A DNA stretch of 64,000 bases, taken from positions 86,071-150,070 of the forward strand of contig NZ_JBDVNU010000038.1 of assembly GCF_039969435.1 (NCBI RefSeq), read 5' to 3'. Source of the DNA: Ilumatobacter sp. GTDB lineage: Bacteria; Actinomycetota; Acidimicrobiia; Acidimicrobiales; Ilumatobacteraceae. Shown piece by piece: positions 17,714-63,415 of this stretch (within the stretch, counting starts at the first letter, position 1; the number at the start of each line of letters is the position of its first letter). The notes under the pieces were generated by a model. That model searched no databases. It saw nothing but the letters and a program-made list of their open reading frames with translations, and was not told where the DNA came from. Made by a program: the position numbers and the translations under genes.

Positions 17714-17850
17714 CCACCATGCTGTGACCACCATCCTCTGAGCGCGATGCGGTGAGTCTTCGTCGGCCTCCGGCCGACGCAGACTCACCGCACGCGTGTT
17801 GGGGGGTGCGAGGTGGAGCGAGCCCGCACGCGGACGGATAGAACGACGAC

Positions 17851-18369
17851 GTGGTCGACCGCAACGGTGCCGTCATCGTGTTCGTGGTCCTGGCCTGCAC
17901 GGCGTGCGACGGCGCCGACGACTCGGCTCCGACCACGCTCGTTCCTGGTGCGCTGGAGGCGAACGCCGTCGTCGAAGACGTCGTCGACGGCGACACCATC
18001 GACGCGACGATCGACGGTCGCACCGACCGGGTGCGACTCATCGGGATCGACACGCCCGAGACCAAGAAGCCGAACACGCCCGTCGAGTGCTTCGGCCCCG
18101 AGGCCACGTCGTTCACCGAATCGCTCCTGCCCGTCGGCACCGCGATCCGGATCGAACGAGACACGGTCAACCGTGACGACTTCGGTCGTCTGCTCGGCTA
18201 CGTCTACCGCGCCGAGGACGGAGTGTTCGTCAACTACGAGTCGATCCGTCAAGGGTTCGCCACGCCGCTCTCGATCGAGCCGAACACCGCCTACGTCGAA
18301 CTCTTCGTCGAGGCCGCCCGCTCGGCCGAGTCCGACGACGTCGGACTCTGGTCGGCCTGCAAGGAGTAG
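17851..18369 (+). CDS. Thermonuclease (staphylococcal nuclease homologue), lipoprotein
   Basis: Lipobox VLAC; SNase motifs (DGDTID..., RLIGIDTPE, RLLGYVY). Confidence 0.8.
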   Translation: MVDRNGAVIVFVVLACTACDGADDSAPTTLVPGALEANAVVEDVVDGDTIDATIDGRTDRVRLIGIDTPETKKPNTPVECFGPEATSFTESLLPVGTAIRIERDTVNRDDFGRLLGYVYRAEDGVFVNYESIRQGFATPLSIEPNTAYVELFVEAARSAESDDVGLWSACKE

Positions 18370-18379
18370 CGTCTCGGTC

Positions 18380-19213
18380 GTGGAGTCACTGGTCGAACGG
18401 TTGGGGTACGCCGCCGACACGAAGGTCGTGATCCTCTCGTGCGACGACCTCGGCGCGAGTCACGCGTCGAACGAAGGCGTGTTCCGTGCGCTCCATGACG
18501 GCGCCGCCACCTGCGCATCGCTGATGGTTCCCGCGCCGTGGGCATGCCACGCGGCGAACAACGCCCTGCCCGACGACGACATCGGCGTGCACCTCACGCT
18601 CAACTCCGAACACGGTTGCTACCGCTGGGGTCCCGTCACGCACTCGCCGTCGCTGCAGTCGGGCGAGGGCGGGTTCCCGCGCACGCTCGCCGACCTCTGG
18701 GAGCACGCCGATCCCGCCGAGGTCCTCCGCGAGCTCCGCGCCCAGGTCGAGCGCGCCATGGTCTGGGGCGTCGACGTCACCCACCTCGCACCGCATCTGT
18801 CGGCGATCACGCTGCGACCCGAGTTCTTCGACGTGTACCTCGAACTCGCATTCGAGTACCAGCTGCCGATCCGTCTCCCGTCGACGATCTCGGCCGAACA
18901 GGCCGGGTTCCCCTTCCGCTCGCTCGCCGCCGAGGAGGGCGTCGTGTTCCCCGACCACTTCGACCACGACTGGCGCGCCGGCAGCAGGACGAGAGTGTTC
19001 GATGCGATCGGGTCGTTGCAGCCGGGTGTCACGGAAATCCACGTTCAACCGGCCATCGACACACCCGAGGTGCGTGCCTTCGCCGGCGATGCCGCCGACG
19101 GGTGGATCGCCGATCTCGACCTGGTCACCAGCGACGAGCTGCGTCGGCGTCTCGACGACGCCGGCGCCGTGATGATCGGCTTCCGCGACCTCCGCGACCT
19201 CATGCGCTCCTGA
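18380..19213 (+). CDS. YdjC/ChbG-family carbohydrate deacetylase
   Basis: GTG at 18380 (in frame with the 17813 ORF); KVVILSCDDLGASHASNEGV and HLTLNSEHGCYRWGP motifs typical of the YdjC family. Confidence 0.65.
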   Translation: MESLVERLGYAADTKVVILSCDDLGASHASNEGVFRALHDGAATCASLMVPAPWACHAANNALPDDDIGVHLTLNSEHGCYRWGPVTHSPSLQSGEGGFPRTLADLWEHADPAEVLRELRAQVERAMVWGVDVTHLAPHLSAITLRPEFFDVYLELAFEYQLPIRLPSTISAEQAGFPFRSLAAEEGVVFPDHFDHDWRAGSRTRVFDAIGSLQPGVTEIHVQPAIDTPEVRAFAGDAADGWIADLDLVTSDELRRRLDDAGAVMIGFRDLRDLMRS

Positions 19214-19228
19214 ACCATCGGGTGTCAT

Positions 19229-19253
19229 CCATTCGGTGTCTGACACCGAATGG
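19229..19253. terminator. Bidirectional terminator-like palindrome (12-bp arms, 1-nt spacer) between convergent genes
   Basis: ccattcggtgtc t gacaccgaatgg; lies between the ydjC-like stop (19213) and the convergent small ORF stop (19271). Confidence 0.5.
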
Positions 19254-19273
19254 GTCAGACACCGAATGGGTCA
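19242..19273. repeat. 16-bp perfect tandem direct repeat (gacaccgaatgggtca x2)
   Basis: Copy 1 at 19242-19257, copy 2 at 19258-19273; overlaps the right arm of the palindrome and the stop codon of the 19271-19510 ORF. Confidence 0.7.
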
Positions 19274-19510
19274 GACGGTGGCGACGAGGGACTCGATGGC
19301 GGTGGCGGCGTCGCCCGACTTCAGCAGGTCGAGGATCTCGCCGGTGTCGCCCGCGGCCTTCAGCTTGCCGCGCATGAACGCCACCGTCGGATCGAAGTCG
19401 GCTGCAGCCGCGTCGACGATCGGCACCGTGACGACGATCTCCGCGTCGTCCGGGCCCTGGACCCGTTCGTCCTTCTTGGCCACGACGACGCGGTACTGGA
19501 CCGTGCTCAT
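19271..19510 (-). CDS. Small SCP2-like (sterol-carrier-domain-like) protein, translationally coupled to mca
   Basis: 79 aa; C-terminal FMRGKLKAAGDTGEILDLLK resembles the SCP2 signature F..GKLK..G....A.KL; start ATG overlaps the mca stop (ATGA). Confidence 0.5.
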   Translation of the reverse strand: MSTVQYRVVVAKKDERVQGPDDAEIVVTVPIVDAAAADFDPTVAFMRGKLKAAGDTGEILDLLKSGDAATAIESLVATV

Positions 19511-20424
19511 ACGTTCGCATCCTGACGGATGCCGGCGAACAGGTCACGTTCGGTGTCGGAGTCCGGGATCGGGCCGACCTCGTTGCGCGCCAGGATCCAG
19601 TCCTCCCACGGGTACGTCTCGCGGAGTTGCTCGTCGGTCAGACCGAACCACCAACCGGCGTTCGGGTCGACCTGCGTGGCGTGTGCCCGCAACGCCCCGG
19701 TGCGTGCCCACTGGTAGTCGGCGACGTCGATCTTGGTGGTGATCCGGTCGTCCTGACCCTCGCGAGCCAGCCATTCCTCGGTGAACGGCGACTCGCCGGT
19801 GTACTTCAGCATCGCGTCGTGCACGGCCAGGATCCGCGCCTTGGCCCACACGGCGTAATAGAGCTTCAGCGGCTGGAACGGCTCGCCGAGCTCGGGGTAC
19901 CACTCGGCGTCGCCGGCACGGTCGAATGCGAGCACCGAGATGTCGTGCACGCGCAGGTGATCGGGGTGCGGGTAGCCGGCCTGGTCGTCGCCGTAGGTGA
20001 TGATGACCTGCGACTTCGTTCGTCGGATGACCGCCACGAGGCGACCGACGGCTTCGTCGAGGTCGGCCTGGTGGAAGCAGTCGGGGTGCTCGTTCGGTTC
20101 GGTCTCGGCCATCCCCGAGTCGCGATAACCGAGCATCACGACCTCGTCGAATCCGATGACGGCCGCCGACTCGGCCAGCTCCGACGCGCGCAGGGACGCC
20201 ACGAGTTCGCGCTCCTGCTCCGGCGTGAGCCCGTGGAAGGGCTGGCCCTCCTCACGAAGCGACGGGTTCTGCAGATCGCCCTCCTCGCCACCGGTGCAGC
20301 ACACCAGCACGGTGTTCGCGCCGTGCGCCTTGTACTTCGCCAGCGTGGGTGCGCCCTTCGATGCTTCGTCGTCGGGGTGGGCGTGCACCGTCAGGATGGT
20401 CAGTGGGGGATTCGTCTCGGACAC
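19507..20424 (-). CDS. mca: Mycothiol S-conjugate amidase (LmbE family)
   Basis: From GTG 20424: MSETNPPLTILTVHAHPDDEASKGAPTLAKY..., GYPHPDH, KLYY, ALRAHATQVDPNA, ELFAGI, closely matching mycobacterial Mca rather than MshB. The upstream 141 codons of the 447-aa ORF are low-complexity and rejected. Confidence 0.8.
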   Translation of the reverse strand: MSETNPPLTILTVHAHPDDEASKGAPTLAKYKAHGANTVLVCCTGGEEGDLQNPSLREEGQPFHGLTPEQERELVASLRASELAESAAVIGFDEVVMLGYRDSGMAETEPNEHPDCFHQADLDEAVGRLVAVIRRTKSQVIITYGDDQAGYPHPDHLRVHDISVLAFDRAGDAEWYPELGEPFQPLKLYYAVWAKARILAVHDAMLKYTGESPFTEEWLAREGQDDRITTKIDVADYQWARTGALRAHATQVDPNAGWWFGLTDEQLRETYPWEDWILARNEVGPIPDSDTERDLFAGIRQDANV

Positions 20425-27116: not shown

Positions 27117-30086
27117 GTGACATCGTCGTGGAGGCCGACAGGGTTCTCGTTCGCCCTGCGACTGCTCGCGCTCCTGCTCCCACCTCTCCTCGGCGTCGGA
27201 GTCCTGGCATTCCAGCGGATCGAGACCGAGCAGACCGCGTCCGCCAACGCCCGTCGAGTCGTCGACGAGGCTCGACTCCAACAGGACGTGGCTGCGGTGT
27301 ACGGACCGGCCCAGCTCGAACAGGTTGCGCTCGAGGGGTTGGCGGCGGTCGACGCCCTCGGTGTCGACCGCGAGATCGTCGTCTCGGTCACCGGTGTCGA
27401 CTTCGGGCAGGTGTACGGCGACAACGGGGCGCTCCTCGACGCCCGCCTGGACGACCTGATCGAACGACACGGCTCCGTGGCGGTCGCCGGCTCCACGCTC
27501 GCCATCCGACTCACGTTCATCCGCGGCGCGATCGCCACGCAGCGCCGGTTGTCCGGGGAGTTCCGCGCGACAGAACGCGATGTGCGCCTCGTGTTCGAGG
27601 ACCTCAACCGACTCCTGGCCGACGCCCTCGACACCAGGAACCCCACGGCGTCCCCGTCGGCCACACCGCGCATTCTCGTCGCCGACCAGATGCGACTCGC
27701 CGCACTGAGCGACGTGCTGTCGGCGGCCGGTGGTCGGGGCACGGCTCTCCTCGACGGTCTCCTCAACCGGACCGAGCTGACGATCGGCGCCATCGAACAG
27801 GCGTCGGGCCGTCTCGACTACGCGATCGAGAGATACGAATCGCTGATCGGCACCGACGCCGGGTTCGCTGCCGTCCTCGCTGGCCTCGAACCGGTCCCCG
27901 ACGAACTGCTGTTGCGTTCGCTCACCGAGTCGGACGCCGACGTGTACGACCCCGTGTACATCCAGACCTCTGCCGGGGCTCTGCTCAACCAACTGGAATT
28001 CCTGGGGTCGATCGAGGCGTACTCGGCCCGTGTCCACGAAACAGTGGTCGACGGTCTCGATGCCGACGCCGTGGCCGCGAACTCCGCGGTGTCCAACACC
28101 CGTCTGTTCGCCGGCGCCATCGCGATCGTCAGCCTCGCCACCCTGCTCCTCCTGGCCTGGTCGACGTTGCGACCGCTGCGACGCCTCACGAATCGTGCTC
28201 GCGACATCAGCGACGGGTCGTTCGACGTCGAGCCGCTCCCCGAACGCGGTCCCCGTGACGTGCGGTTCCTGACCACGACGATGAACTCGATGGCCACGAC
28301 GCTGCGGATGGTGGATCGCGAGATCGCCGATCTCGCATCGGACTCACCCGGCGAACACGACCGCAACCTCCCCGGCGCCATCGGCATCTCGATCACCCGC
28401 TCGTTCGATCGGCTCGAAGAGGTGTCCGCTCGTCTCCAGGAGAGCGAGCAACTGGCATCGGCCATCGTCGAGCACGCCGCCGACGCGATCTGGACGATCG
28501 ACGCCCACGGGCTGATCACTTCGGCCAACGGCGCCTCGGTGGGTCTGACCGGCGTGTCTGCCACTCGACAACTCGGTGAACCGCTCGAGCGATACCTCCC
28601 GAGCACTGCGGGTGAGGTCGACATCCGCAGCGAATCGGGCGAAACCCTGAGGGTCCTCGTGGCGAGCAGCGAGATCACCAGCGGTGATCAGGCGCTGACG
28701 ACCGTGATCGCACACGACATCTCCGAGCGCCTGCGGTTCGAGCAGAAGCTCGCCCACCAGGCCAACCACGACGCACTCACGGGTCTCCCGAACCGCTATG
28801 CCGTCCTCGAAGCGCTCGTCGCGACGCCCGTCGGCGACTCGGTGTCGGTCCTCTTCCTGGACCTCGACGGCTTCAAGTCCGTGAACGACACACGCGGGCA
28901 CCTCGCCGGCGACCGTGTGCTGGCCGACGTCAGCCGCCGCCTCTCGAGCAATGTGCGGCCGGGTGACTTCGTCGGACGACTCGGCGGAGACGAGTTCGTC
29001 GTGATCATGCGCCACGTCGAGGACGGCGACGACGCGATCTCGTTCGCCCACCGCCTGATCCGCGAGATCGAGCAGCCGTACCACGACGGGCAAAACCTGT
29101 TCGCCCTCTCGGCAAGCGTCGGGATCGCCGTCTTCCCCCACGGCATCGCTGCCGAGGGATGCGACGCGCTCGGTGCCATCCGACGCGCCGACTCCGCCGT
29201 CTACGCGGCCAAGGGCAAGGGGCGGGGTCGTGTCGAGGCGTTCGACGAACGACTCCAGAACCGCATCGTGGACGAAGCAGAGATCGAACTGGCTCTGCGC
29301 AGCGCCGTGCGCAACGACGAACTCGAGATGCACCTCCAGCCGGTCTTCGACGCCGTGCTCGGCCGGTTCACCAGCGCCGAGGCGCTCGTGCGTTGGATCC
29401 GACCCGGCCACGGCATGATGCCTCCCGGCCAGTTCATCCCGATCGCCGAGCGGTCGTCGCTGATCGACGAGATCGGTCGATGGGTCCTGGATCGTGCGTG
29501 TGCGATCCTCGCCCGCTGGGCACAGGACGACGTGCTGCGCGAGTTCAGGATCGCCGTCAACGTGGCCGGATCGCACCTCCTCGACGGGGACCTCGTGGCC
29601 GACCTGGACGCTGCGGTTCGCCGTTCCGGAGCCGACCCGACGCGCCTCGAGTTCGAACTCACCGAGACACAGTTGATGGCCGACCACGAGCGTGCTGCAT
29701 CGATCCTGCGCACGATCCGTCGACGCGGCATCAAGGTCGCGATCGACGACTTCGGCACCGGGTACTCGTCGATGGCATACCTCCGACAACTCCCCATCGA
29801 CACCCTCAAGATCGACCGGAGCTTCATCGCCCCGATCGGCGGCAGCGATGCCGACGGCGACACCACCGTGGTCGACGCACTTCTGACGATCGGCCACGCA
29901 CTGGGGCTGTCGGTGGTCGCTGAAGGTGTCGAGACCACTGCCCAGATGGAGTACGTGACGACACACGGGGCCGACCGTGTCCAGGGTTTCCTGCTCGCCC
30001 GTCCGGCCTCGATCTCCGCCATCGAGACGGTACTGCGTCAGGGGCGAACCGCTGATGCTGAGTCCGCCTCGGCGCATCAGCCATGA
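27117..30086 (+). CDS. Membrane sensor GGDEF-EAL protein (periplasmic sensor-HAMP-PAS-GGDEF-EAL)
   Basis: 989 aa; N-terminal TM, second TM about residue 330, PAS-like region, GGDEF (RLGGDEFVV), EAL (EALVRWIRP..., KVAIDDFGTG, KIDRSF). Confidence 0.85.
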   Translation: MTSSWRPTGFSFALRLLALLLPPLLGVGVLAFQRIETEQTASANARRVVDEARLQQDVAAVYGPAQLEQVALEGLAAVDALGVDREIVVSVTGVDFGQVYGDNGALLDARLDDLIERHGSVAVAGSTLAIRLTFIRGAIATQRRLSGEFRATERDVRLVFEDLNRLLADALDTRNPTASPSATPRILVADQMRLAALSDVLSAAGGRGTALLDGLLNRTELTIGAIEQASGRLDYAIERYESLIGTDAGFAAVLAGLEPVPDELLLRSLTESDADVYDPVYIQTSAGALLNQLEFLGSIEAYSARVHETVVDGLDADAVAANSAVSNTRLFAGAIAIVSLATLLLLAWSTLRPLRRLTNRARDISDGSFDVEPLPERGPRDVRFLTTTMNSMATTLRMVDREIADLASDSPGEHDRNLPGAIGISITRSFDRLEEVSARLQESEQLASAIVEHAADAIWTIDAHGLITSANGASVGLTGVSATRQLGEPLERYLPSTAGEVDIRSESGETLRVLVASSEITSGDQALTTVIAHDISERLRFEQKLAHQANHDALTGLPNRYAVLEALVATPVGDSVSVLFLDLDGFKSVNDTRGHLAGDRVLADVSRRLSSNVRPGDFVGRLGGDEFVVIMRHVEDGDDAISFAHRLIREIEQPYHDGQNLFALSASVGIAVFPHGIAAEGCDALGAIRRADSAVYAAKGKGRGRVEAFDERLQNRIVDEAEIELALRSAVRNDELEMHLQPVFDAVLGRFTSAEALVRWIRPGHGMMPPGQFIPIAERSSLIDEIGRWVLDRACAILARWAQDDVLREFRIAVNVAGSHLLDGDLVADLDAAVRRSGADPTRLEFELTETQLMADHERAASILRTIRRRGIKVAIDDFGTGYSSMAYLRQLPIDTLKIDRSFIAPIGGSDADGDTTVVDALLTIGHALGLSVVAEGVETTAQMEYVTTHGADRVQGFLLARPASISAIETVLRQGRTADAESASAHQP

Positions 30087-30218: not shown

Positions 30219-30842
30219 ATGAGTGATGTCCTGTCCGCCTCCATCGAACTCCCGACGCTGGTGTTCACCGCGCTGCTCGCCATCGCCGGCTGCATGTGGC
30301 TGCTCTCGCTGATGGGCGCGATCGACATCGAGATCGATGCGGCCGACGGCCTGCTCGACGACGCGCTCGAACCACTCGGCCTGTCCGAGGTCCCCGCCAC
30401 GATCATGCTCACCGTGTTCGCTCTGGCCGGCTGGTTCGTGTCGGTGCTCACGAGCGTCTACGTCCTCGACGGCTGGTTCGGCACCACCGCCGTCCTCGCC
30501 CTGCTGGCCACGGGGATCGGCGCTGCGCTGGTCGCTCTGCTCTTCGTGGCGTGGCTGGCACCTCGACTCGCCGTGGTCTTCGTCACCACCACGGCGCCGT
30601 CGAAGCGCGAGCTCCTCGGTCGGATCGCCGAGGTGCGCTCCGCCACCGTCACCGAGACGACGGGCCGAGGCGAGGCAACGTGGCCGGACGGCACCGTGTC
30701 GACCGTCGACCTGCGCACCACGGCCGGCACCGGCGTGGCCCCGGGCGAACTCAAGCGCGGCGATCTCGCCCTGATCGTGGAGTGGAACGAGGCCACCGAC
30801 GACTTCTTCGTCGGCCGCGTTCCCGCCGAGTTGCTCGACTGA
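30219..30842 (+). CDS. NfeD/YqiJ-like membrane protein (N-terminal TM helices plus C-terminal OB-fold)
   Basis: 3-4 TM helices, then a soluble C-terminal about 80-aa beta-rich domain (GEATWPDGTVSTVDLRT...LALIVEWNEATDDFFVG); sits immediately upstream of a flotillin gene as in yqiJ-yqiK and yuaF-floT operons. Confidence 0.65.
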   Translation: MSDVLSASIELPTLVFTALLAIAGCMWLLSLMGAIDIEIDAADGLLDDALEPLGLSEVPATIMLTVFALAGWFVSVLTSVYVLDGWFGTTAVLALLATGIGAALVALLFVAWLAPRLAVVFVTTTAPSKRELLGRIAEVRSATVTETTGRGEATWPDGTVSTVDLRTTAGTGVAPGELKRGDLALIVEWNEATDDFFVGRVPAELLD

Positions 30843-30848
30843 GGCAGG

Positions 30849-30870
30849 GTGCGGGGAGACATCCCCGCAC
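30849..30870 (+). promoter_or_regulatory. Perfect 9-bp stem / 4-nt loop hairpin between the NfeD-like and flotillin genes (intra-operon attenuator or processing site)
   Basis: gtgcgggga gaca tccccgcac, starting 7 bp after the NfeD-like stop; 120 bp before the flotillin start. Confidence 0.4.
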
Positions 30871-30992
30871 ATCCATCGGTTCGTTTCGACCATGATGTGT
30901 CCGTACATCGTGGTCACCACCAGATGATCGACGCTCACTCCCATCCGGGATCGGCGCTCGACATCGCTTCGAGAAAGAGTCAGTGATTCAAC

Positions 30993-33008
30993 ATGGGAAG
31001 TGCCCTCGCAGCGGCCGGCGTCGTCGTCGTCATCGTGGTCGTCGTCGTCCTCCTCGTCGCCGTGATGGTGTCGAGGCTGTTCCTCAAGGTCCCGCAGGGT
31101 CAGGCGCTGGTCGTGTCGAAGTGGCGGTCGGTCGTGGTCACCTTCACCGGCCAGATCGTCATCCCGGTGATCCACAAGGCCGAGATCATGGACATCTCGG
31201 TCAAGAACATCCAGATCGAGCGGCGCGGCAAGGGCAACGGTCTGATCTGCAAGGACAACATCCGTGCCGACATCTCGGTCGAGTTCTTCGTGAAGGTCGA
31301 TCCCACCGAGGAGGCCGTCAAGAAGGTGGCTCAGGCGATCGGCTGCGAGCGGGCGTCGGACATCCAGACGCTGAACACGCTGTTCGCCGCGAAGTTCTCC
31401 GAGGCACTCAAGACGGTGGGCAAGAAGTTCGAGTTCGAATCGCTCTACACCGACCGTGATTCGTTCCGTGACGAGATCGTCGAGATCATCGGCAAGGACC
31501 TCAACGGATACGTCCTCGAAGACGTCGCCATCGACTACCTCGAGCAGACGCCGCTGGCCGATTTCGACCCCGACAACATCCTCGACGCCGACGGCATTCG
31601 CAAGATCACCGAGCGCACCGCCATCCAGCACATCGAGACCAACAAGGCCGAACAGCACGAGCGCGAGGAGACCACTCGTCGCACCGTCGACGCCGACAAG
31701 GCGGTGTTCGAGATGGAGCGCGATCGTGCCGAGGCCGAGGCACGTCAGCAGCAGGAGATCCGCACCGTCATCGCGCATGCCGACGCCGAGGCGAAACTCG
31801 TGGAGGAGGCGGAACGCAAGCGTTCCGAGGAGGCCCGACTCGGTGCCGAGCAGGGCATCGGTGTCGCGAACGAGAACAAGGAACGCGAGGTCGCCATCGC
31901 GGGCTTGAACCGTGAACGCGTGGTCAAGGTCGAAGCCGAGAACATCGAGCGGGATCGACTGCTCGCGGTCACCGGCCGGGAGACCGCCGTGGCCGAAGCG
32001 AACAAGGAGAAGGAGGAGCGGGCGCGCGAACTCGCCGACGTCGCCCGTGGCCGCGTCGAGGCCGACCTGGGTGTGGCCGAGAAGGAAGAGGCCATCGCGA
32101 CCCTGCGCGTCGTGGAGGACGCCCAGCGCCGGGCGGACGCCGCGATCCGCACCGCCGAAGGTGACGCCCAGGCGTTGTTCGTCGGGACCGTGAAGGAAGC
32201 CGAGGCCTCCCGTCAGGCTGCGACATCCGAAGCCGAGCGGGCCACCATCCTCGCCCGCGCGAACGCCGACGCCGCCCAGCAGGATTCGCTCGCCGCACAA
32301 CGACGTGCCGAAGGCGCCAAGGCCGAGGCCGCAGCCGGCGGTCTCGCCGAGGTGCAGGTCGAGCGCGAGCGCGCCGACGCCGTCCGGGCGCTCGGTCTGG
32401 CCGAGGTCGAGGTCAAGCAGGCCGACGCCGAAGCCGTCCGATCACTCGGCGCCGCCGAAGGCGATGCCACCAAGTCCAGGCTGTCGGGTGAAGGCCAAGG
32501 TCTATCGGCCAAGGCCGAGGGCGTCGGAGCGATGACGGCGGCCGGCCAGGAGCACGAGGAGTTCCGCCTGCGCCTCGAGACCGACAAGGAAGTGGCGCTG
32601 GCCGGCGTCAACGCCAAGGCCGACGTGGCGCGGTCCGCTGCGGCAGCGCTGGGCGAGGCCATGGCGAACGCCGACATGAAGATCGTGTCCGACGAGTCGA
32701 TCGTCGAGCGGATCCTGTCCGCGGCCGGTGCCGGTCAGGCGATCGACGGTTTCGTCGGGAGCAGCGACAGCGCACGGCGCCTGCTCCAGCCCTACTTGGA
32801 AGGCGACTCGAACCTGGTGCAGGACGTCGCCGCCGGAGTCGGCGGCGTGGGTGCCGCAGGCATCCGTGACCTGACGATCGCCGAGTTCGTCGCCCGTCTG
32901 GGTGGTCGCATGGGCGGCGACTCCGCGCTGATCGACCAACTCAAGGCCGCGGTGGAGTCGAGCGGCCTCGCGACCGAGAACGTCGGCAACGTCATCGATG
33001 TCGACTGA
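30993..33008 (+). CDS. Flotillin-family SPFH (band-7) protein, YqiK/FloT-like
   Basis: N-terminal TM; SPFH domain (QALVVSKWRSVVVTFTGQIVIPVIHKAEIMDISVKNIQIERRGKGNGLICKDNIRADISVEFFVKV); long Ala/Glu-rich coiled-coil flotillin region; 671 aa. Confidence 0.85.
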   Translation: MGSALAAAGVVVVIVVVVVLLVAVMVSRLFLKVPQGQALVVSKWRSVVVTFTGQIVIPVIHKAEIMDISVKNIQIERRGKGNGLICKDNIRADISVEFFVKVDPTEEAVKKVAQAIGCERASDIQTLNTLFAAKFSEALKTVGKKFEFESLYTDRDSFRDEIVEIIGKDLNGYVLEDVAIDYLEQTPLADFDPDNILDADGIRKITERTAIQHIETNKAEQHEREETTRRTVDADKAVFEMERDRAEAEARQQQEIRTVIAHADAEAKLVEEAERKRSEEARLGAEQGIGVANENKEREVAIAGLNRERVVKVEAENIERDRLLAVTGRETAVAEANKEKEERARELADVARGRVEADLGVAEKEEAIATLRVVEDAQRRADAAIRTAEGDAQALFVGTVKEAEASRQAATSEAERATILARANADAAQQDSLAAQRRAEGAKAEAAAGGLAEVQVERERADAVRALGLAEVEVKQADAEAVRSLGAAEGDATKSRLSGEGQGLSAKAEGVGAMTAAGQEHEEFRLRLETDKEVALAGVNAKADVARSAAAALGEAMANADMKIVSDESIVERILSAAGAGQAIDGFVGSSDSARRLLQPYLEGDSNLVQDVAAGVGGVGAAGIRDLTIAEFVARLGGRMGGDSALIDQLKAAVESSGLATENVGNVIDVD

Positions 33009-33013
33009 CCCCG

Positions 33014-33106
33014 GGTGTGGGAGGGGTCTGACCCACTCCACACCCGAGGCGCACGACCCCGCTCCGCACCTCGATGGTGTGGAGTGGGTCAGACCCCTCC
33101 CACACC
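33014..33106. repeat. Intergenic element: 31-bp perfect inverted repeat (arms 33014-33044 and 33076-33106) with 31-nt spacer; each arm is itself internally palindromic
   Basis: Arm A ggtgtgggaggggtctgacccactccacacc; arm B is its exact reverse complement. Within each arm ggtgtgg...ccacacc and gggtc.gaccc can pair. Sits between the flotillin stop (33008) and the ATG (33107) of the large gene. Confidence 0.85.
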
Positions 33107-36100
33107 ATGACTGACACCTCCACCACCGAGACACCGCAGGGTGATGCCGCTCCCGAGCAGACGCTGCGGGGCGGGTCCTACGACCTGCTGCGTCGACGAC
33201 TCGCCGGCCAGGCGAGCGAGCTCGAACAGATCGCCCTCGGGATCGACGCGGCCCGCATCGAGGCCTTCGGCTCGGTCGATCTCGCGCTGACCGGTGCGGA
33301 TCGTCTCGCCACCGATCTGGCCTGCCTGCCGCGCGACATCGCTCGGATCGGCGACCTGTTGCTGCTCGGCTTCAACATCGACGTCGAATTGAGCATCCAA
33401 CGACCCGAGCAGGTGTTCGCGTTGTACGCGGCGAGCGAGGTCTCCACCGATCAGCCGACCCTGACCCCCGTCGCCGACGACGATCCGCGCAACTTCCTGG
33501 CCGATCCCGAGTTCCGCAGCGAGTTCGACAAGCTCGTGCGGTTCTTCGGCAAGAGTCGGTTCACCGACCTGCGCACCACCCAGAACCAGCTCTTGGCAGT
33601 GTTCCAGGTCGGCGACCGCGTGGACGACGTCCGCGCGTTCCGATGGACGCTCAGCGGCGACGGTGCGTCACGAACGGCCACGTTCGTCGATGCCCGTGGA
33701 GACCGTGACTACACGTGGCCGCCTGCGCACGACCAGGAATGGACCGCAGCGACTCGAGAGGATCAGCGTGCGGGTGCGTACCCGGTCGTGTCGATCAAGG
33801 ACGAGGTGTTCGTCGGATTCCGCCGCGGCCGACTCCAACTGCGCGTCGAGACGGGGCAGGGCGGCTCGCACGCCGAGATCGACGAACCCGTCACGAACGT
33901 CGGCCAGTCGCTCGCCGACATCTCCGTCGACCACCTGACGATCGGCGACATCCTGCTGATCCGCGTCCGCCTGTACGAGGAGGCGCCGCGGACGTACGTC
34001 TTCTCCCGACGCAGTCGGTCGGGTCAACGCGTCGATGCCGCAGGTGTCGCGTCACGGCTCCTGCCGGGCGGCGAGGGCGTCGTGTTCCCGGGCGGCTTCC
34101 ATCTCACGTCGACCGGCACCCGCGTGTTCGACGTCGACGTCGACGGCCTCCAGTTCGAGGAGACGATCGCCTCACCCAACGGTGAGGACGTCCTGTACGT
34201 GTTCCACCGGCGTGAGACGGGCACCTATCTGCTGATGCCCTACAACCTGGTGAAACGCCAGGTCGCACAGGTCATCACCGCACACGGTTTCGCCACGTTC
34301 GCCGATGGGTCGATGGTCCTGTTCCGCGACCAGGGCGTCGACGCCGATTCGGCGAAGATCCACCCGATCCAGTGGTGGAGAACGCCGTTCGCCGACGCCG
34401 ACCACGTCCCCGATGCGGGTGACGACAACCCGTGGATGCAACGTGTGGGGAACGCCTCGCTCGTGGCAGGCCTCGGCGACGTCTACGACGTGGTGCGACT
34501 CAGCCGTGACGAGCAACCGACCGCCCGGTCGTGGGAAGGACTCGCCTCGGCGACCCGCCGATCGATGGATCAGCACCTCTGGTTCGTCGACCCCGAGGCC
34601 GCAGGTCTCCACGCCGCAGCGCACGAGGTGCTCACCACGGCGGGCCAGTTGCTCGACGAACACAAACTGGTCGAGCGCAAACGCTCCGCTGCGCGCGGCT
34701 CGCTCGCCGCCGCCGAGACATCGGTCCGCCAGGTGCTCAACGGCATCTCGACCGCCTCGACCCCCGACCAGGTGGTGGGCGCACTCGGGCAGTTGCGCCG
34801 GGCACGAGGTGAGATGTCCGTCGTCGCCGACATCGACTCGATCGACACCGGTCGCGTCGAGGAACTCATCGGTGAGCTGGACGCAGGTGTGGCCGAACTG
34901 TCCACGCGCGCCGTCGACGTGTTGTCACGACCCGGTGCATTCGCCTCGCTCGAGTCCGAGATCGCCTCGGCGGAAGCGGGCGTGACGGACGCGACGACAT
35001 CGGCGCACCTGGACGAGATCGGTCGACGGCTCCAGTCGATCGGCAACGACCTCGACGCGGTGATCGACACGGTGTCGGCGCTCGAAGGAGGCGACCCGAC
35101 GGTGCGCACCACGATCGTGCGCAGCGTCTCGGAGGTCGCAGGATCCGCCAACCGGGTCACTGCGCAGCTCGACTCGAAACGACGCAACCTCGGAGCCAAG
35201 GAGGCCGAGGCCGCGTTCGACGCCGAACTCGCACTCGTCGAGCAGACCTTGAACGGCTCGGTCGCCGGTGCCGGCACACCCGACGAGTGCGACTCCGTGC
35301 TCGCCCGACTGCTCGTCACGATCGAACGGTTGGAGTCCCGCTACGGCGACGACCCCGACGCCAGCGCGTCCATCGCCGAGGTGCGCGCCACAGCGCACGA
35401 GGTCGTCGGCGAGCGGCGCACCGCGCTCCTCGACGAACGCAACCGGCGCGCCACCCGCATCGTGGACGCCGCCACCCGACTCCTCGCGACCGTCACCCGT
35501 CGTGCGAGCGAGTTCGCCGACGACAAGGAGATCGCATCGTTCTTCGCGACCGACCAGCTCACCTCCCGGGTGCGTGAACTCGCCGACGAGTTGGAGTCGC
35601 TCGACGACGCCGGTCGCGCTGCCGAGGTGCGCAGTGGCCTCCGCGACGCCGCCGAGGAAGCACGCCGTCGCATCCGCGACAAGGCCGCCCTGGTGTCCGA
35701 CGACGGCGCGGTGGTGCTCGGTGGCGTGCGGCTCGCACAGAACAACCAACCCTTCGAGATGGTTCTGTCCTCGCGCACGGACCCGCAGGGCAACGACACC
35801 GTCGCGGCGACCATCACCGGCACCGACTTCTCGGCCGACGTCAGCGCCGAACTCTCCGGGTTCGAGGATCTGCTCGGTCGCACCTTCCCGTCCGAGACGT
35901 CCGGCGCCCGCGGCGTCTCACGCAGCGAGTACCTGGCGTGGGCGGTCCTCGAGACGATGACCGACCGGCCGGGCGGACTCACCGAACTCCTGGCGGCCAC
36001 CGCGAACCCGGCGAAGATGAACGAGCTGTGTCAGGCCGAGGCCGAACGCCGGCACGGCGACGGCTATCAGCGTGGCGTCCACGACCAGGATGCAGCACGC

Positions 36101-38077
36101 ATCCTCTCCGCCGTGATGCCTGCACTCGAAGCCGAGCCGCTCCTGCGCTACACCGGCACCGTCCGCGGCCTCGCCCGGCTCTGGCTGTCGCAACTCTCCT
36201 CCCCTGCCCTCGATGGCTGGGTCGCGAAGGCGAAGGCCGCCGAGACCGCCGCCCAGCGACTCGGTGCCACTGGACCGGCACGCCGCCTGGCCGAGGAGGC
36301 AGCGCACGAGATCGAACAGTTCGTCGCAGCGTCGTCGGCGCCCGAGACGCACCGAGCCGTGTTCGGGCCGATCGAGATCGAGCGCGCAGCCGACTACCTG
36401 ATCGACGAACTCGCGGTCGGCCCGGAGGTCATCGCGTCTTCGGCGGCCACATCGCTCGTCGGGGAGATGCAGAAAGATCTCGGCAAGGACGGCGTGGCCG
36501 AGCTGCACGTGGCACTCGCTTCGGAGGCCGATGCGGTGGAGCGGTTCGTTCTTGCCCAGGACTGGGTCGCGGCTTTCGTGGCCGCCGATCCGTCACGAGC
36601 CGATCGGGAGTTCGACGTGGCCGAGGCTGCGTCGATGTTGGCCACGCCGGACCTCGCCGTGCGGACGGCGAACCAGGGCGGGGCGATCACGGTGACCGGG
36701 CTCGTGGCCGACCATCCGCGTCTCGTCGACGGGCAGCTCGTCACCCGGACCGACGAACTCGCCGAAGGAGCGGGCGCCCTGTTCGCCGAGATGCAGTCGC
36801 GGTGGCCGGCCTACTCCGAGGCGCGGCGCCGGGTGGTGGATCGCCAGAGCGCAGTCGTCAAGCTCGACGAACACCGACCCCAGGTCATGTCGGGCTTCGT
36901 GCGCAACACGCTGATCGACACCGCACTGCTCCCGCTGTTCGGCCCGAACCTCGGTCGACAGCTCGGCACGGTCGATCCGACCGACGTGGCACGTCAGGGC
37001 CTCCTCGTCGTCGTGTCGCCCCCCGGGTACGGCAAGACGACGCTGATGGAGTGGATCGCCGACCGGTTGGGCCTGCTGATCGTGAAGGTGAACGGCCCGG
37101 CGCTCGGCCACGACACGACCAGCCTCGACCCCGCCGATGCCCCGAATGCGGCCGCCCGCGCCGAGATCGAGAAGGTCAACCTGGCGTTCCGGATGGGTCG
37201 CAACGTGATGCTGTACGTCGACGACATCCAGCACACCTCCCCCGTCCTGCTGTCCCGGTTCATCCCGCTGGCCGATGCGACCCGGCGGATCGAGGGGGTC
37301 GTCGACGGCGAGCCGACCACGTTCGACCTGCGCGGCAAGCGGTTCTGCGTGGTCATGGCAGGCAACCCGTACACCACTGGCGGCGGGCGCTTCGAGATGC
37401 CCGACATGCTCGTCAACCGTTCCGACGTGTTCAACCTCGGCGACGTGTCGGGCGAACACGGCGAGGCATTCGCCCGCTCCTACATCGAGAACTCACTCAC
37501 CGCGTGTCCGACCATCGCGCCGCACGCGTCGAAGCTGCTCGACGACCTCGCTCCGGTGCTGCAGATGGCGGCGGGCCGCGCACCGGTCGAGACGAGTGGC
37601 CTGGAGCACGCCTGGGACGGCGCCGAACTCGATGGGACGGTTCGTGCCGTGTCCATGCTGCGTCGTGCCCAGGAGGTGCTGCTGAAGGTCAACGCGTCCT
37701 ACATCGCATCGGCGGCCACGGCCGACGAGGACCGGGTCGCGCCGCCGTTCCTCCTCCAGGGCTCGTACCGCAACATGGCCCGCATCGCGAGTCGGGTGGT
37801 GCCCGTGATGACCGAGGCCGAACTCGACATGGTCGTCGACGACCACTACACCTCCGAGGCCCAGACCCTCACCGACAAGGCAGAACAGAACCTGCTCGCC
37901 TACAAGTCGCTCACCGGCCGCTCGACCGCCGCCGAGGCCGCTCGCTGGCAGGAGATCCTCGATCGCGCCGGCGCCCGAGCCGCAGCCGCCGACGGCGTGG
38001 GACGCGTGGTCGGCGCACTCGACCGCCTCACCGGCGCCGTGCTGCACGACCCCGACCACCCCGCCCCCGGCGTCTGA
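33107..38077 (+). CDS. 1656-aa multidomain protein with a single C-terminal AAA+ ATPase module (MoxR/dynein-like clade); N-terminal about 1250 aa of unassigned function
   Basis: ATG at 33107 (MTDTSTTE...; the in-frame ATG at 33074 lies inside repeat arm B). Walker A VVSPPGYGKTTL, Walker B MLYVDDIQH, sensor-1-like CVVMAGNPYTTGGGRFEMPDMLVNRSDVF; long helical/coiled stretches in the middle; no TM segment seen; continuous GC3 bias over about 5 kb. Confidence 0.7.
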   Translation: MTDTSTTETPQGDAAPEQTLRGGSYDLLRRRLAGQASELEQIALGIDAARIEAFGSVDLALTGADRLATDLACLPRDIARIGDLLLLGFNIDVELSIQRPEQVFALYAASEVSTDQPTLTPVADDDPRNFLADPEFRSEFDKLVRFFGKSRFTDLRTTQNQLLAVFQVGDRVDDVRAFRWTLSGDGASRTATFVDARGDRDYTWPPAHDQEWTAATREDQRAGAYPVVSIKDEVFVGFRRGRLQLRVETGQGGSHAEIDEPVTNVGQSLADISVDHLTIGDILLIRVRLYEEAPRTYVFSRRSRSGQRVDAAGVASRLLPGGEGVVFPGGFHLTSTGTRVFDVDVDGLQFEETIASPNGEDVLYVFHRRETGTYLLMPYNLVKRQVAQVITAHGFATFADGSMVLFRDQGVDADSAKIHPIQWWRTPFADADHVPDAGDDNPWMQRVGNASLVAGLGDVYDVVRLSRDEQPTARSWEGLASATRRSMDQHLWFVDPEAAGLHAAAHEVLTTAGQLLDEHKLVERKRSAARGSLAAAETSVRQVLNGISTASTPDQVVGALGQLRRARGEMSVVADIDSIDTGRVEELIGELDAGVAELSTRAVDVLSRPGAFASLESEIASAEAGVTDATTSAHLDEIGRRLQSIGNDLDAVIDTVSALEGGDPTVRTTIVRSVSEVAGSANRVTAQLDSKRRNLGAKEAEAAFDAELALVEQTLNGSVAGAGTPDECDSVLARLLVTIERLESRYGDDPDASASIAEVRATAHEVVGERRTALLDERNRRATRIVDAATRLLATVTRRASEFADDKEIASFFATDQLTSRVRELADELESLDDAGRAAEVRSGLRDAAEEARRRIRDKAALVSDDGAVVLGGVRLAQNNQPFEMVLSSRTDPQGNDTVAATITGTDFSADVSAELSGFEDLLGRTFPSETSGARGVSRSEYLAWAVLETMTDRPGGLTELLAATANPAKMNELCQAEAERRHGDGYQRGVHDQDAARILSAVMPALEAEPLLRYTGTVRGLARLWLSQLSSPALDGWVAKAKAAETAAQRLGATGPARRLAEEAAHEIEQFVAASSAPETHRAVFGPIEIERAADYLIDELAVGPEVIASSAATSLVGEMQKDLGKDGVAELHVALASEADAVERFVLAQDWVAAFVAADPSRADREFDVAEAASMLATPDLAVRTANQGGAITVTGLVADHPRLVDGQLVTRTDELAEGAGALFAEMQSRWPAYSEARRRVVDRQSAVVKLDEHRPQVMSGFVRNTLIDTALLPLFGPNLGRQLGTVDPTDVARQGLLVVVSPPGYGKTTLMEWIADRLGLLIVKVNGPALGHDTTSLDPADAPNAAARAEIEKVNLAFRMGRNVMLYVDDIQHTSPVLLSRFIPLADATRRIEGVVDGEPTTFDLRGKRFCVVMAGNPYTTGGGRFEMPDMLVNRSDVFNLGDVSGEHGEAFARSYIENSLTACPTIAPHASKLLDDLAPVLQMAAGRAPVETSGLEHAWDGAELDGTVRAVSMLRRAQEVLLKVNASYIASAATADEDRVAPPFLLQGSYRNMARIASRVVPVMTEAELDMVVDDHYTSEAQTLTDKAEQNLLAYKSLTGRSTAAEAARWQEILDRAGARAAAADGVGRVVGALDRLTGAVLHDPDHPAPGV

Positions 38078-63365: not shown

Positions 63366-63415
63366 CCGATCCGACGACGACCCCCGGCACCTTCCGTCGT
63401 TCGTCGTCGGATCGG
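63366..63415 (+). terminator. 15-bp perfect inverted repeat (20-nt loop) immediately after the mycoredoxin stop
   Basis: ccgatccgacgacga ...20 nt... tcgtcgtcggatcgg. Confidence 0.5.

Follow-up and report, generated by a model that had tools for sequence, protein, structure and literature searches.

The region separating a flotillin gene from a large ATPase gene in the 64-kb stretch of Ilumatobacter DNA analysed here (hereafter the window) carries two inverted copies of a 31-nt REP-like palindrome that is dispersed in related genomes. We consider, with a probability of about 0.78, that this doublet (positions 33014-33106) represents a BIME-1/REPIN-like pair inserted, in the lineage of the window, into a flotillin-ATPase junction that is otherwise short and probably coupled in translation. 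The preliminary description of this locus had put forward a regulatory function specific to these genes, as an attenuator, RNase III site or riboregulator. A function as a dedicated regulator of the flotillin and ATPase genes is not supported by the results presented below: the riboregulator-like hairpin is one copy of a genomic repeat and is not to be annotated as a regulatory RNA of these two genes.

Architecture and predicted folding of the doublet

At the junction, the TGA codon that terminates the flotillin gene (33006-33008) is followed by CCCCG, arm A, a spacer, arm B and the ATG of the ATPase gene at 33107. Arm A, the left unit of the doublet (33014-33044, GGTGTGGGAGGGGTCTGACCCACTCCACACC), is an imperfect palindrome of 31 nt reading GGTGTGG-GAG-GGGTC-T-GACCC-ACT-CCACACC, which corresponds to the general unit GGTGTGG-NNN-GGGTC-N-GACCC-NNN-CCACACC. 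Arm B, the right unit (33076-33106, GGTGTGGAGTGGGTCAGACCCCTCCCACACC), is its exact reverse complement. In agreement with the perfect 31-bp inverted repeat and 31-nt gap claimed initially, a repeat finder scored the two arms as complementary at 31/31 positions, and they constitute the longest inverted repeat of the window. The spacer (33045-33075, 31 nt, CGAGGCGCACGACCCCGCTCCGCACCTCGAT) ends in CGAGG and CCTCG, and these ends lengthen the stem by 5 bp beyond a 2-nt bulge, as had been anticipated. With up to 3 mismatches allowed, the arm had no further match in the 64-kb window, and 100 shuffles gave none either. The symmetry of the doublet also produces open reading frames encoding the same peptide on both strands (MVWSGSDPSHT on the plus strand and ...VWSGSDPSHTRG on the minus strand); these mirrored peptides are present as described, and are a trivial consequence of the inverted repeat. 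A direct repeat, GACTGAC, is found on both sides of the doublet.

The surroundings consist of ordinary chromosomal genes, and both neighbouring genes are read on the plus strand. The upstream gene (30993-33008) encodes a 671-aa flotillin of the SPFH/Band_7 type, the stop codon of which lies 5 nt 5' of arm A, and the downstream gene (33107-38077) encodes a 1656-aa DUF3686/DUF7902/AAA ATPase whose ATG stands directly 3' of arm B. This abutment, also part of the preliminary description, is confirmed. Alignment with eight orthologues, the N-termini of which read M/V-T/S-D-T..., fixes the ATPase start at 33107, and an independent assembly calls the same start. The alternative ATG at 33074, which would add the 11-aa extension MVWSGSDPSHT, was rejected by the N-terminal alignment. 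No Shine-Dalgarno sequence is recognisable at the ATPase start, nor in its orthologues. The flotillin of the window shares 89% identity with its I. coccineus and I. nonamiensis counterparts, which identifies the window as Ilumatobacter-like, and a contig of GCA_039981155.1 matches the window with 100% identity over 7.4 kb.

Minimum free energy (MFE) folding predicted that the doublet RNA adopts one hairpin of ~36 bp with a free energy of about -84 to -89 kcal/mol and a z-score of ~-10. When 141 nt were folded, the value was -88.8 kcal/mol (z = -9.75), and 0/200 shuffled sequences were as stable; the minus strand of the region gave -98.8. The predicted stem reaches position -1 of the ATPase gene, so that its start region would indeed be buried, as proposed earlier. 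Taken alone, each arm also folds on itself with -18.3 kcal/mol into a 7-bp outer stem, a 3x3 internal loop and a GGGT/ACCC apical stem. The preliminary description had considered that the RNA could form either one very long stem or two tandem hairpins. The former is borne out by the folding; the latter is predicted at -50.5 kcal/mol compared to -84.4 kcal/mol for the long stem, with an ensemble frequency of ~1e-25. Because it is ~34 kcal/mol less stable, the two-hairpin state is no equilibrium alternative, and a riboswitch-like switch between two states was rejected on energy as thermodynamically implausible. According to this model, tandem hairpins could at most be a transient co-transcriptional intermediate.

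A search of Rfam returned only sub-threshold matches to miRNA-precursor models (35.9 bits, the gathering score being 60), which are accounted for by the generic long hairpin. A terminator scan of positions 33000-33120 detected no terminator-like site and no U tract, the sequence 3' of the hairpin being ATGACTGACACC; an intrinsic (Rho-independent) terminator was ruled out on the lack of a U tract. No promoter was found at the doublet.

Dispersed copies and related palindromes

The pattern GGTGTGGNNNGGGTCNGACCCNNNCCACACC, in which 24 exact bases were required, was used to scan one genome per prokaryotic species and then a metagenome collection. In the genome scan, 11 units were recovered on 10 contigs, all of them from the metagenome-assembled genome Acidimicrobiales bacterium LS6_sbin.24. 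The metagenome scan added at least 6 units on 5 contigs of assembly RCMY01, one of which carries a degenerate second arm as well. At least 17 further units are thus present on 15 contigs of congeneric genomes, LS6_sbin.24 being assigned to Ilumatobacter on account of a PepA that shares 98% identity with a protein of Ilumatobacter sp. These counts are lower bounds, as the pattern demands 24 exact bases and the assemblies are fragmented. The source genome of the window is not among the matches of the genome scan. The preliminary description had itself opposed a gene-specific element to a generic repeat found at many unrelated intergenic sites and had recommended a search for further copies of the arm in relatives; the outcome of this search is a dispersed repeat.

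Copies placed in the same orientation agree at 29-31 of 31 nt, have boundaries at exactly 31 nt and lie in unrelated flanks. Between arm B and the LS6_sbin.24 master copy, GGTGTGGAGTGGGTCAGACCCCTGCCACACC, there is a difference of 1 nt. All units examined (18/18) are located outside open reading frames supported by GC3, most of them no more than 50 nt from a stop codon, and the typical position is just 3' of stop codons or between convergent genes. One unit lies within the nadB-nadC operon (L015). The neighbours are all unrelated housekeeping genes; they encode a metallopeptidase, a chorismate-binding enzyme, a SpoU methylase, PhoD, leucyl aminopeptidase, enoyl-CoA hydratase, melibiase, CcmF, pyruvate kinase and RbfA. 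No transposase was found among 20 genes flanking the units, and viral contigs, plasmids and phages contained no copies of the 31-nt unit.

Single units prevail over doublets by 9:1 in LS6_sbin.24 and by 4:1 in RCMY01. Inverted doublets were observed at 3 of ~16 sites, namely in the window, in L011 (32-nt spacer, -80.5 kcal/mol) and in L026 (26-nt spacer, -70.1 kcal/mol), and the two latter are predicted to form a long hairpin like that of the window. The similarity of the three spacers to each other is not significant (p ~0.13), and a common spacer, which would indicate that the doublet is copied as one unit, was not retained. Copies truncated to the initial 12-14 nt (GTGTGGAGTGGG...) occur directly 5' of complete units at L008 1612-1625 and L010 917-934; they may be the trace of a copying or slippage mechanism.

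Other palindromes of ~31 nt in the loci examined share a GTCWGAC centre, and their outer stems are different yet self-complementary. Examples are CGGCCGAAGTGGGTCAGACCCGATCCGGCCG, GTCCAGGTTTGGGTCAGACCCAAACCTGGAC and GTCGAGGTTGGGGTCTGACCCCAACCTCGAC, in addition to the GGTGTCWGACACC family. Among the 145 GTCNGAC sites present in the 219 kb examined, palindromic arms reach 15 nt or more in 28, no fewer than 12 of which possess outer stems other than those of the window unit. In shuffled sequence, 0-5 GTCNGAC sites had arms of 8 nt or more. Covariation over 13 units of the superfamily amounted to 57 double-sided changes, a number as high being obtained in 0/500 shuffles; this count is descriptive, the units having been preselected as palindromes. 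A BIME-like cluster of ~210 nt, comprising five GTCAGAC-centred units from three families, is located at L017 2323-2535, where it is flanked by a PAC2-family gene and a gene for an aminotransferase.

A second site of the superfamily is present in the window itself at 19222-19276, where cGGTGTCTGACACCg is accompanied by two tandem CACCGAATGGGTCAGA (-45 kcal/mol, 34.7 bits); a YdjC-like gene (17813-19213) converges on it from one side, and a small open reading frame of the minus strand (19274-19543) lies on the other. The superfamily covariance model applied to the 64-kb window matched only this site and both arms of the doublet, arm A scoring 36.9 bits. Regarding the GGTGTCWGACACC family, the 25-mer CAAACGGTGTCTGACACCGGATGAC is identical at L003 5048-5072, which is the flotillin-ATPase junction of I. 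coccineus (AP012057), and, in LS6_sbin.24, at L009 1842-1866, an intergenic site unrelated to it. The junction has therefore also received a second repeat family.

The flotillin-ATPase junction in other lineages

The junctions of nine other Ilumatobacter lineages were read directly and the element of the window was absent from all of them, which identifies the 93-nt doublet as a lineage-specific insertion. The coding ends are kept on both sides of the junction (...V-D-stop upstream and M-T-D... downstream). The shortest junction, TGAcccgGTG in L007, has a 4-nt spacer typical of translational coupling, a length that may be off by a homopolymer base, given that the flotillin (502 + 161 aa) and ATPase open reading frames are broken by frameshifts in this locus (L007 3001-7509); these frameshifts are probably long-read assembly errors. 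The other spacers measure 30 nt in I. nonamiensis, 36-37 nt in L018/L019, 66 nt in I. coccineus, 69 nt in the L028 group, 75 nt in L038, 81 nt in L021 and 129 nt in L006.

Several of these spacers contain palindromes of their own. A different doublet occupies the same junction in L006/L027 (3492-3590, flotillin 92% identical), where 31-nt self-palindromic arms (GTTACCGCTGGGGACAGGCACCAGCGGTAAC) are separated by ~33 nt and give 23 pairs and -68 kcal/mol; no second copy of this arm (GTTACCGCTGG...) was found in 13.5 kb of its own contig or in viral contigs. In marine Ilumatobacter, the junction palindrome is AGAGTTGCGAA-T-GGGGTCAGGCCCC-TT-TCGCAACTCT in L028-L037 (2620-2688, 15 pairs) and GGACACGAGGTGTCTGACCCCTCGTGTCC in L038 (2683-2757, 14 pairs), each with a partial tandem duplication of the left arm. 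I. coccineus has a shorter palindrome of 13 bp, GGTGTCTGACACC. Palindromes of differing sequence are thus observed at the junction in 4-5 of 10 lineages, and 5/10 lineages have spacers of 4-81 nt devoid of strong structure (z ~0). As a control, the spacer upstream of the flotillin gene, which is longer, has a stem of 14 or more pairs in only 1/10 lineages. The enrichment (4-5 of 10 compared to 1 of 10) falls short of statistical significance and concerns a locus that was chosen for having a hairpin; the recurrence of palindromes hints weakly at a hotspot or at selection. It should also be mentioned that contig L020 (ERZ6863740, 3304 nt), with a flotillin 91% identical to that of the window, ends 7 nt past the flotillin stop codon, a break consistent with the presence of a repeat there.

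What the doublet may do inside the operon can be outlined from its position and its predicted structure. Transcribed within the operon, it would fold into the ~36-bp hairpin, which could act as a barrier to 3'->5' exonucleases and thereby favour the upstream flotillin message, and which might also be a substrate of RNase III. Such protection of the flotillin message would parallel that attributed to enterobacterial intercistronic REPs, whose effects on expression were reported by Higgins (1982) and Newbury (1987), as cited in PMC3116915 and PMC7509114. The same hairpin would occlude the initiation region of the ATPase gene from -36 to -1, so that initiation by free ribosomes should be poor if the model is correct. 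Between the stop codon and the helix there are 5 nt, and between the other end of the helix and the ATG 0 nt, so that folding would place the two codons side by side. A terminating ribosome could thus be delivered beside the ATPase start, as at the 4-nt junction of L007. The insertion may have been tolerated in a coupled gene pair because the hairpin keeps the stop codon beside the start codon. By analogy with the enterobacterial cases, any effect on the expression of both genes could be a side effect of the repeat or a case of co-option.

Relation to known repeats and alternative explanations

REPs consist of a GT(A/G)G head and a GC-rich imperfect palindrome, are extragenic and abundant, and form BIMEs when units alternate in orientation (PMC2817692). 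A REPIN is an inverted REP doublet with a spacer that forms a near-perfect hairpin, of 89 bp in SBW25, and its spacers vary between copies (PMC3337134). The Ilumatobacter unit is a stem-loop within the GC-rich, ~20-40 nt range of REPs. In every unit GTGG stands at positions 4-7 on both strands, with GGGTC-N-GACCC beginning 3 nt later, and all 18 examined units are extragenic. The inverted pair typical of BIMEs and REPINs is found in the window (31/31 complementary, -84 kcal/mol) as well as in L011 and L026 with the energies given above. Regarding abundance, the 11 copies seen in LS6_sbin.24 and the 6 or more in RCMY01, obtained with the 24-base exact search in fragmented assemblies, fall well short of the more than 100 per genome usual for classical REPs; the source genome contributes 2 units in its 64-kb window, with no further match of the covariance model to the 31-nt unit. 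The predominance of doublets that characterises REPINs was not observed, single units prevailing in LS6_sbin.24 and RCMY01. A RAYT (Y1) transposase was looked for in 224 kb with a regular expression for the HUH...Y motif and a tblastn search with an approximate E. coli YafM query, a weak test that returned neither motif nor match.

The unit resembles enterobacterial REP/BIME-1 (Higgins 1982, Gilson 1991; PMC2817692), which are likewise GC-rich imperfect palindromes of ~30 nt that possess a GT(A/G)G-type head, extragenic and dispersed, often placed just after stop codons or inside operons, and found as single units, inverted pairs joined by a short linker, or clusters such as that of L017. The REPs of hisJ-hisQ and malE-malF have an intercistronic position comparable to that of the window doublet. 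By contrast, the host is here a member of the Acidimicrobiia, within the Actinomycetota, instead of the Proteobacteria, the unit is a nearly complete palindrome of 31 nt with a head on both strands, and the copies demonstrated are in the tens and not in the hundreds. With the REPINs of SBW25 (Bertels & Rainey 2011; PMC3116915, PMC3337134) the doublet shares two inverted REPs around a spacer, a near-perfect hairpin (93 compared to 89 bp), and spacers that vary between copies yet lengthen the hairpin. Arm A starts with GTGGGAGGGG, similar to the group I REP of SBW25, GTGGGAGGGGGCTTGCCCCCGAT, and SBW25 also harbours long palindromic REP singlets of the form 'a-palindrome-a^c'. Unlike in SBW25, single units are common here and doublets rare, each unit is already a long palindrome, and there is no sign of excision or of a cognate RAYT. 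Stem-loop MITEs (Correia, ERIC/IRU, RUP, Nezha) are also small intergenic hairpin insertions, which are transcribed together with adjacent genes and can change how the mRNA is processed; the present element differs from them in lacking a target-site duplication and a related IS, and in that its 'ends' exist as solitary units. Finally, terminators and intercistronic stabiliser hairpins have in common with the doublet a stable GC-rich stem 3' of a stop codon, whereas the doublet has no U tract, is immediately followed by a gene start and consists of sequence also present at unrelated loci.

These comparisons bear on the other ways in which the locus might be explained. That the repeat is generic but that selection favours a stable hairpin at the flotillin-ATPase junction is conceivable, although we regard it as unlikely. 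Such a hairpin would set the flotillin:ATPase ratio through stabilisation of the upstream mRNA, masking of the start, or termination and reinitiation bridged by the hairpin. This reading draws on the unrelated long palindromes seen at the junction in the window, L006/L027, the L028 group and L038, together with the 13-bp palindrome of I. coccineus, on their scarcity in the control spacer, on the perfect complementarity of arms whose helix base is flanked by stop and start, and on the precedent of intercistronic REPs affecting expression, as cited above. However, the hairpin is not required, half of the lineages having junctions with no strong structure, and the excess over the control is not significant at a locus picked for its hairpin. 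The dedicated cis-regulatory RNA of the preliminary description, whether attenuator, RNase III site or translational riboregulator, has in its favour a very stable hairpin between two co-transcribed genes, a start that would be sequestered and arms that fold locally. It is nevertheless highly improbable, since copies of the arm sequence are scattered over unrelated loci, the element is absent from the orthologous junction in nine lineages, no Rfam family is matched at threshold, no U tract is present and the alternative fold is 34 kcal/mol worse.

A transposon origin as a MITE, that is, a 93-bp non-autonomous element of the DDE type with 31-bp terminal inverted repeats, would be in keeping with perfect terminal repeats, small size, intergenic location and insertion relative to empty sites. 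We give it very little credence. The GACTGAC repeat is not a target-site duplication, as both copies pre-exist in the empty sites as coding sequence (...V-D-stop and M-T-D), and no other target-site duplication was found around the copies. The supposed terminal repeat is mostly a solitary, complete and self-palindromic 31-mer, which is typical of REPs, and neither a related IS nor matches in plasmids, phages or viral contigs were found. The Streptomyces DasR box is ACTGGTCTAGACCACT, and the GGTC-N-GACC core of the unit resembles its half-sites. The two identical palindromes, 62 bp apart or about six helical turns, could on this ground be viewed as an operator pair with a GntR-type-box-like core for a dimeric or tetrameric regulator. 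This is the explanation in which we place the least belief: the copies are mostly at gene 3' ends or between convergent genes and not at promoters, conservation extends over the whole 31 nt, outer stems included, and stops sharply at the boundaries, and the half-site spacing is 1 nt off that of the DasR box. Moreover, the related families keep the core and vary their outer stems self-complementarily, which argues for a hairpin rather than a duplex operator. An inserted pair of REP-like units thus remains our preferred reading of the doublet. A wider proposal, which we consider quite unlikely and put forward as speculation, is that Ilumatobacter hosts an undescribed superfamily of ~31-nt GTCWGAC hairpin repeats, different families of which have been repeatedly fixed at this junction because a helix joining stop and start tunes or preserves coupled translation, possibly with a mode of spread independent of RAYTs.

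REP, BIME and REPIN repeats are documented almost entirely in Proteobacteria, and the published RAYT surveys consulted mention none in Actinobacteria. A well-defined family from the Acidimicrobiia, with a conserved GTCWGAC apex and variable stems, would offer a handle on RAYT-like domesticated transposases or on another mechanism through which such units may have spread. The repeats would also explain contig breaks in Ilumatobacter MAGs. The flotillin-ATPase junction itself constitutes a natural experiment on translational coupling, with a 4-nt junction in L007 and a 98-nt hairpin junction in the window. If the wider proposal above were true, the doublet would be a co-opted 'hairpin-bridged' intercistronic element in a phylum in which REP/RAYT systems are essentially uncharacterised.

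Some additional features of the window were recorded. Strong and unique hairpins lie 3' of genes at 17748-17792 (21-nt arms, 3-nt loop) and 63366-63415 (22-nt arms, 6-nt loop); they are terminator-like without T tracts. The flotillin and ATPase genes belong to a conserved three-gene module (30219-38077) that encodes a 207-aa protein, the SPFH/flotillin protein and the 1656-aa DUF3686/DUF7902/AAA ATPase. The 207-aa protein has no Pfam match and the module no PADLOC or NCBIfam match. Homologues of the flotillin with ~50% identity are carried by Streptomyces and Amycolatopsis. Upstream of the module, a HAMP-PAS-GGDEF-EAL gene (27117-30086) lies between an M90 peptidase gene and the gene for the 207-aa protein, and the same arrangement is found in I. 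coccineus. I. nonamiensis and L007 (L005/L007 comparison) are without this gene at that position, and an insertion or deletion has therefore taken place next to the three-gene module.
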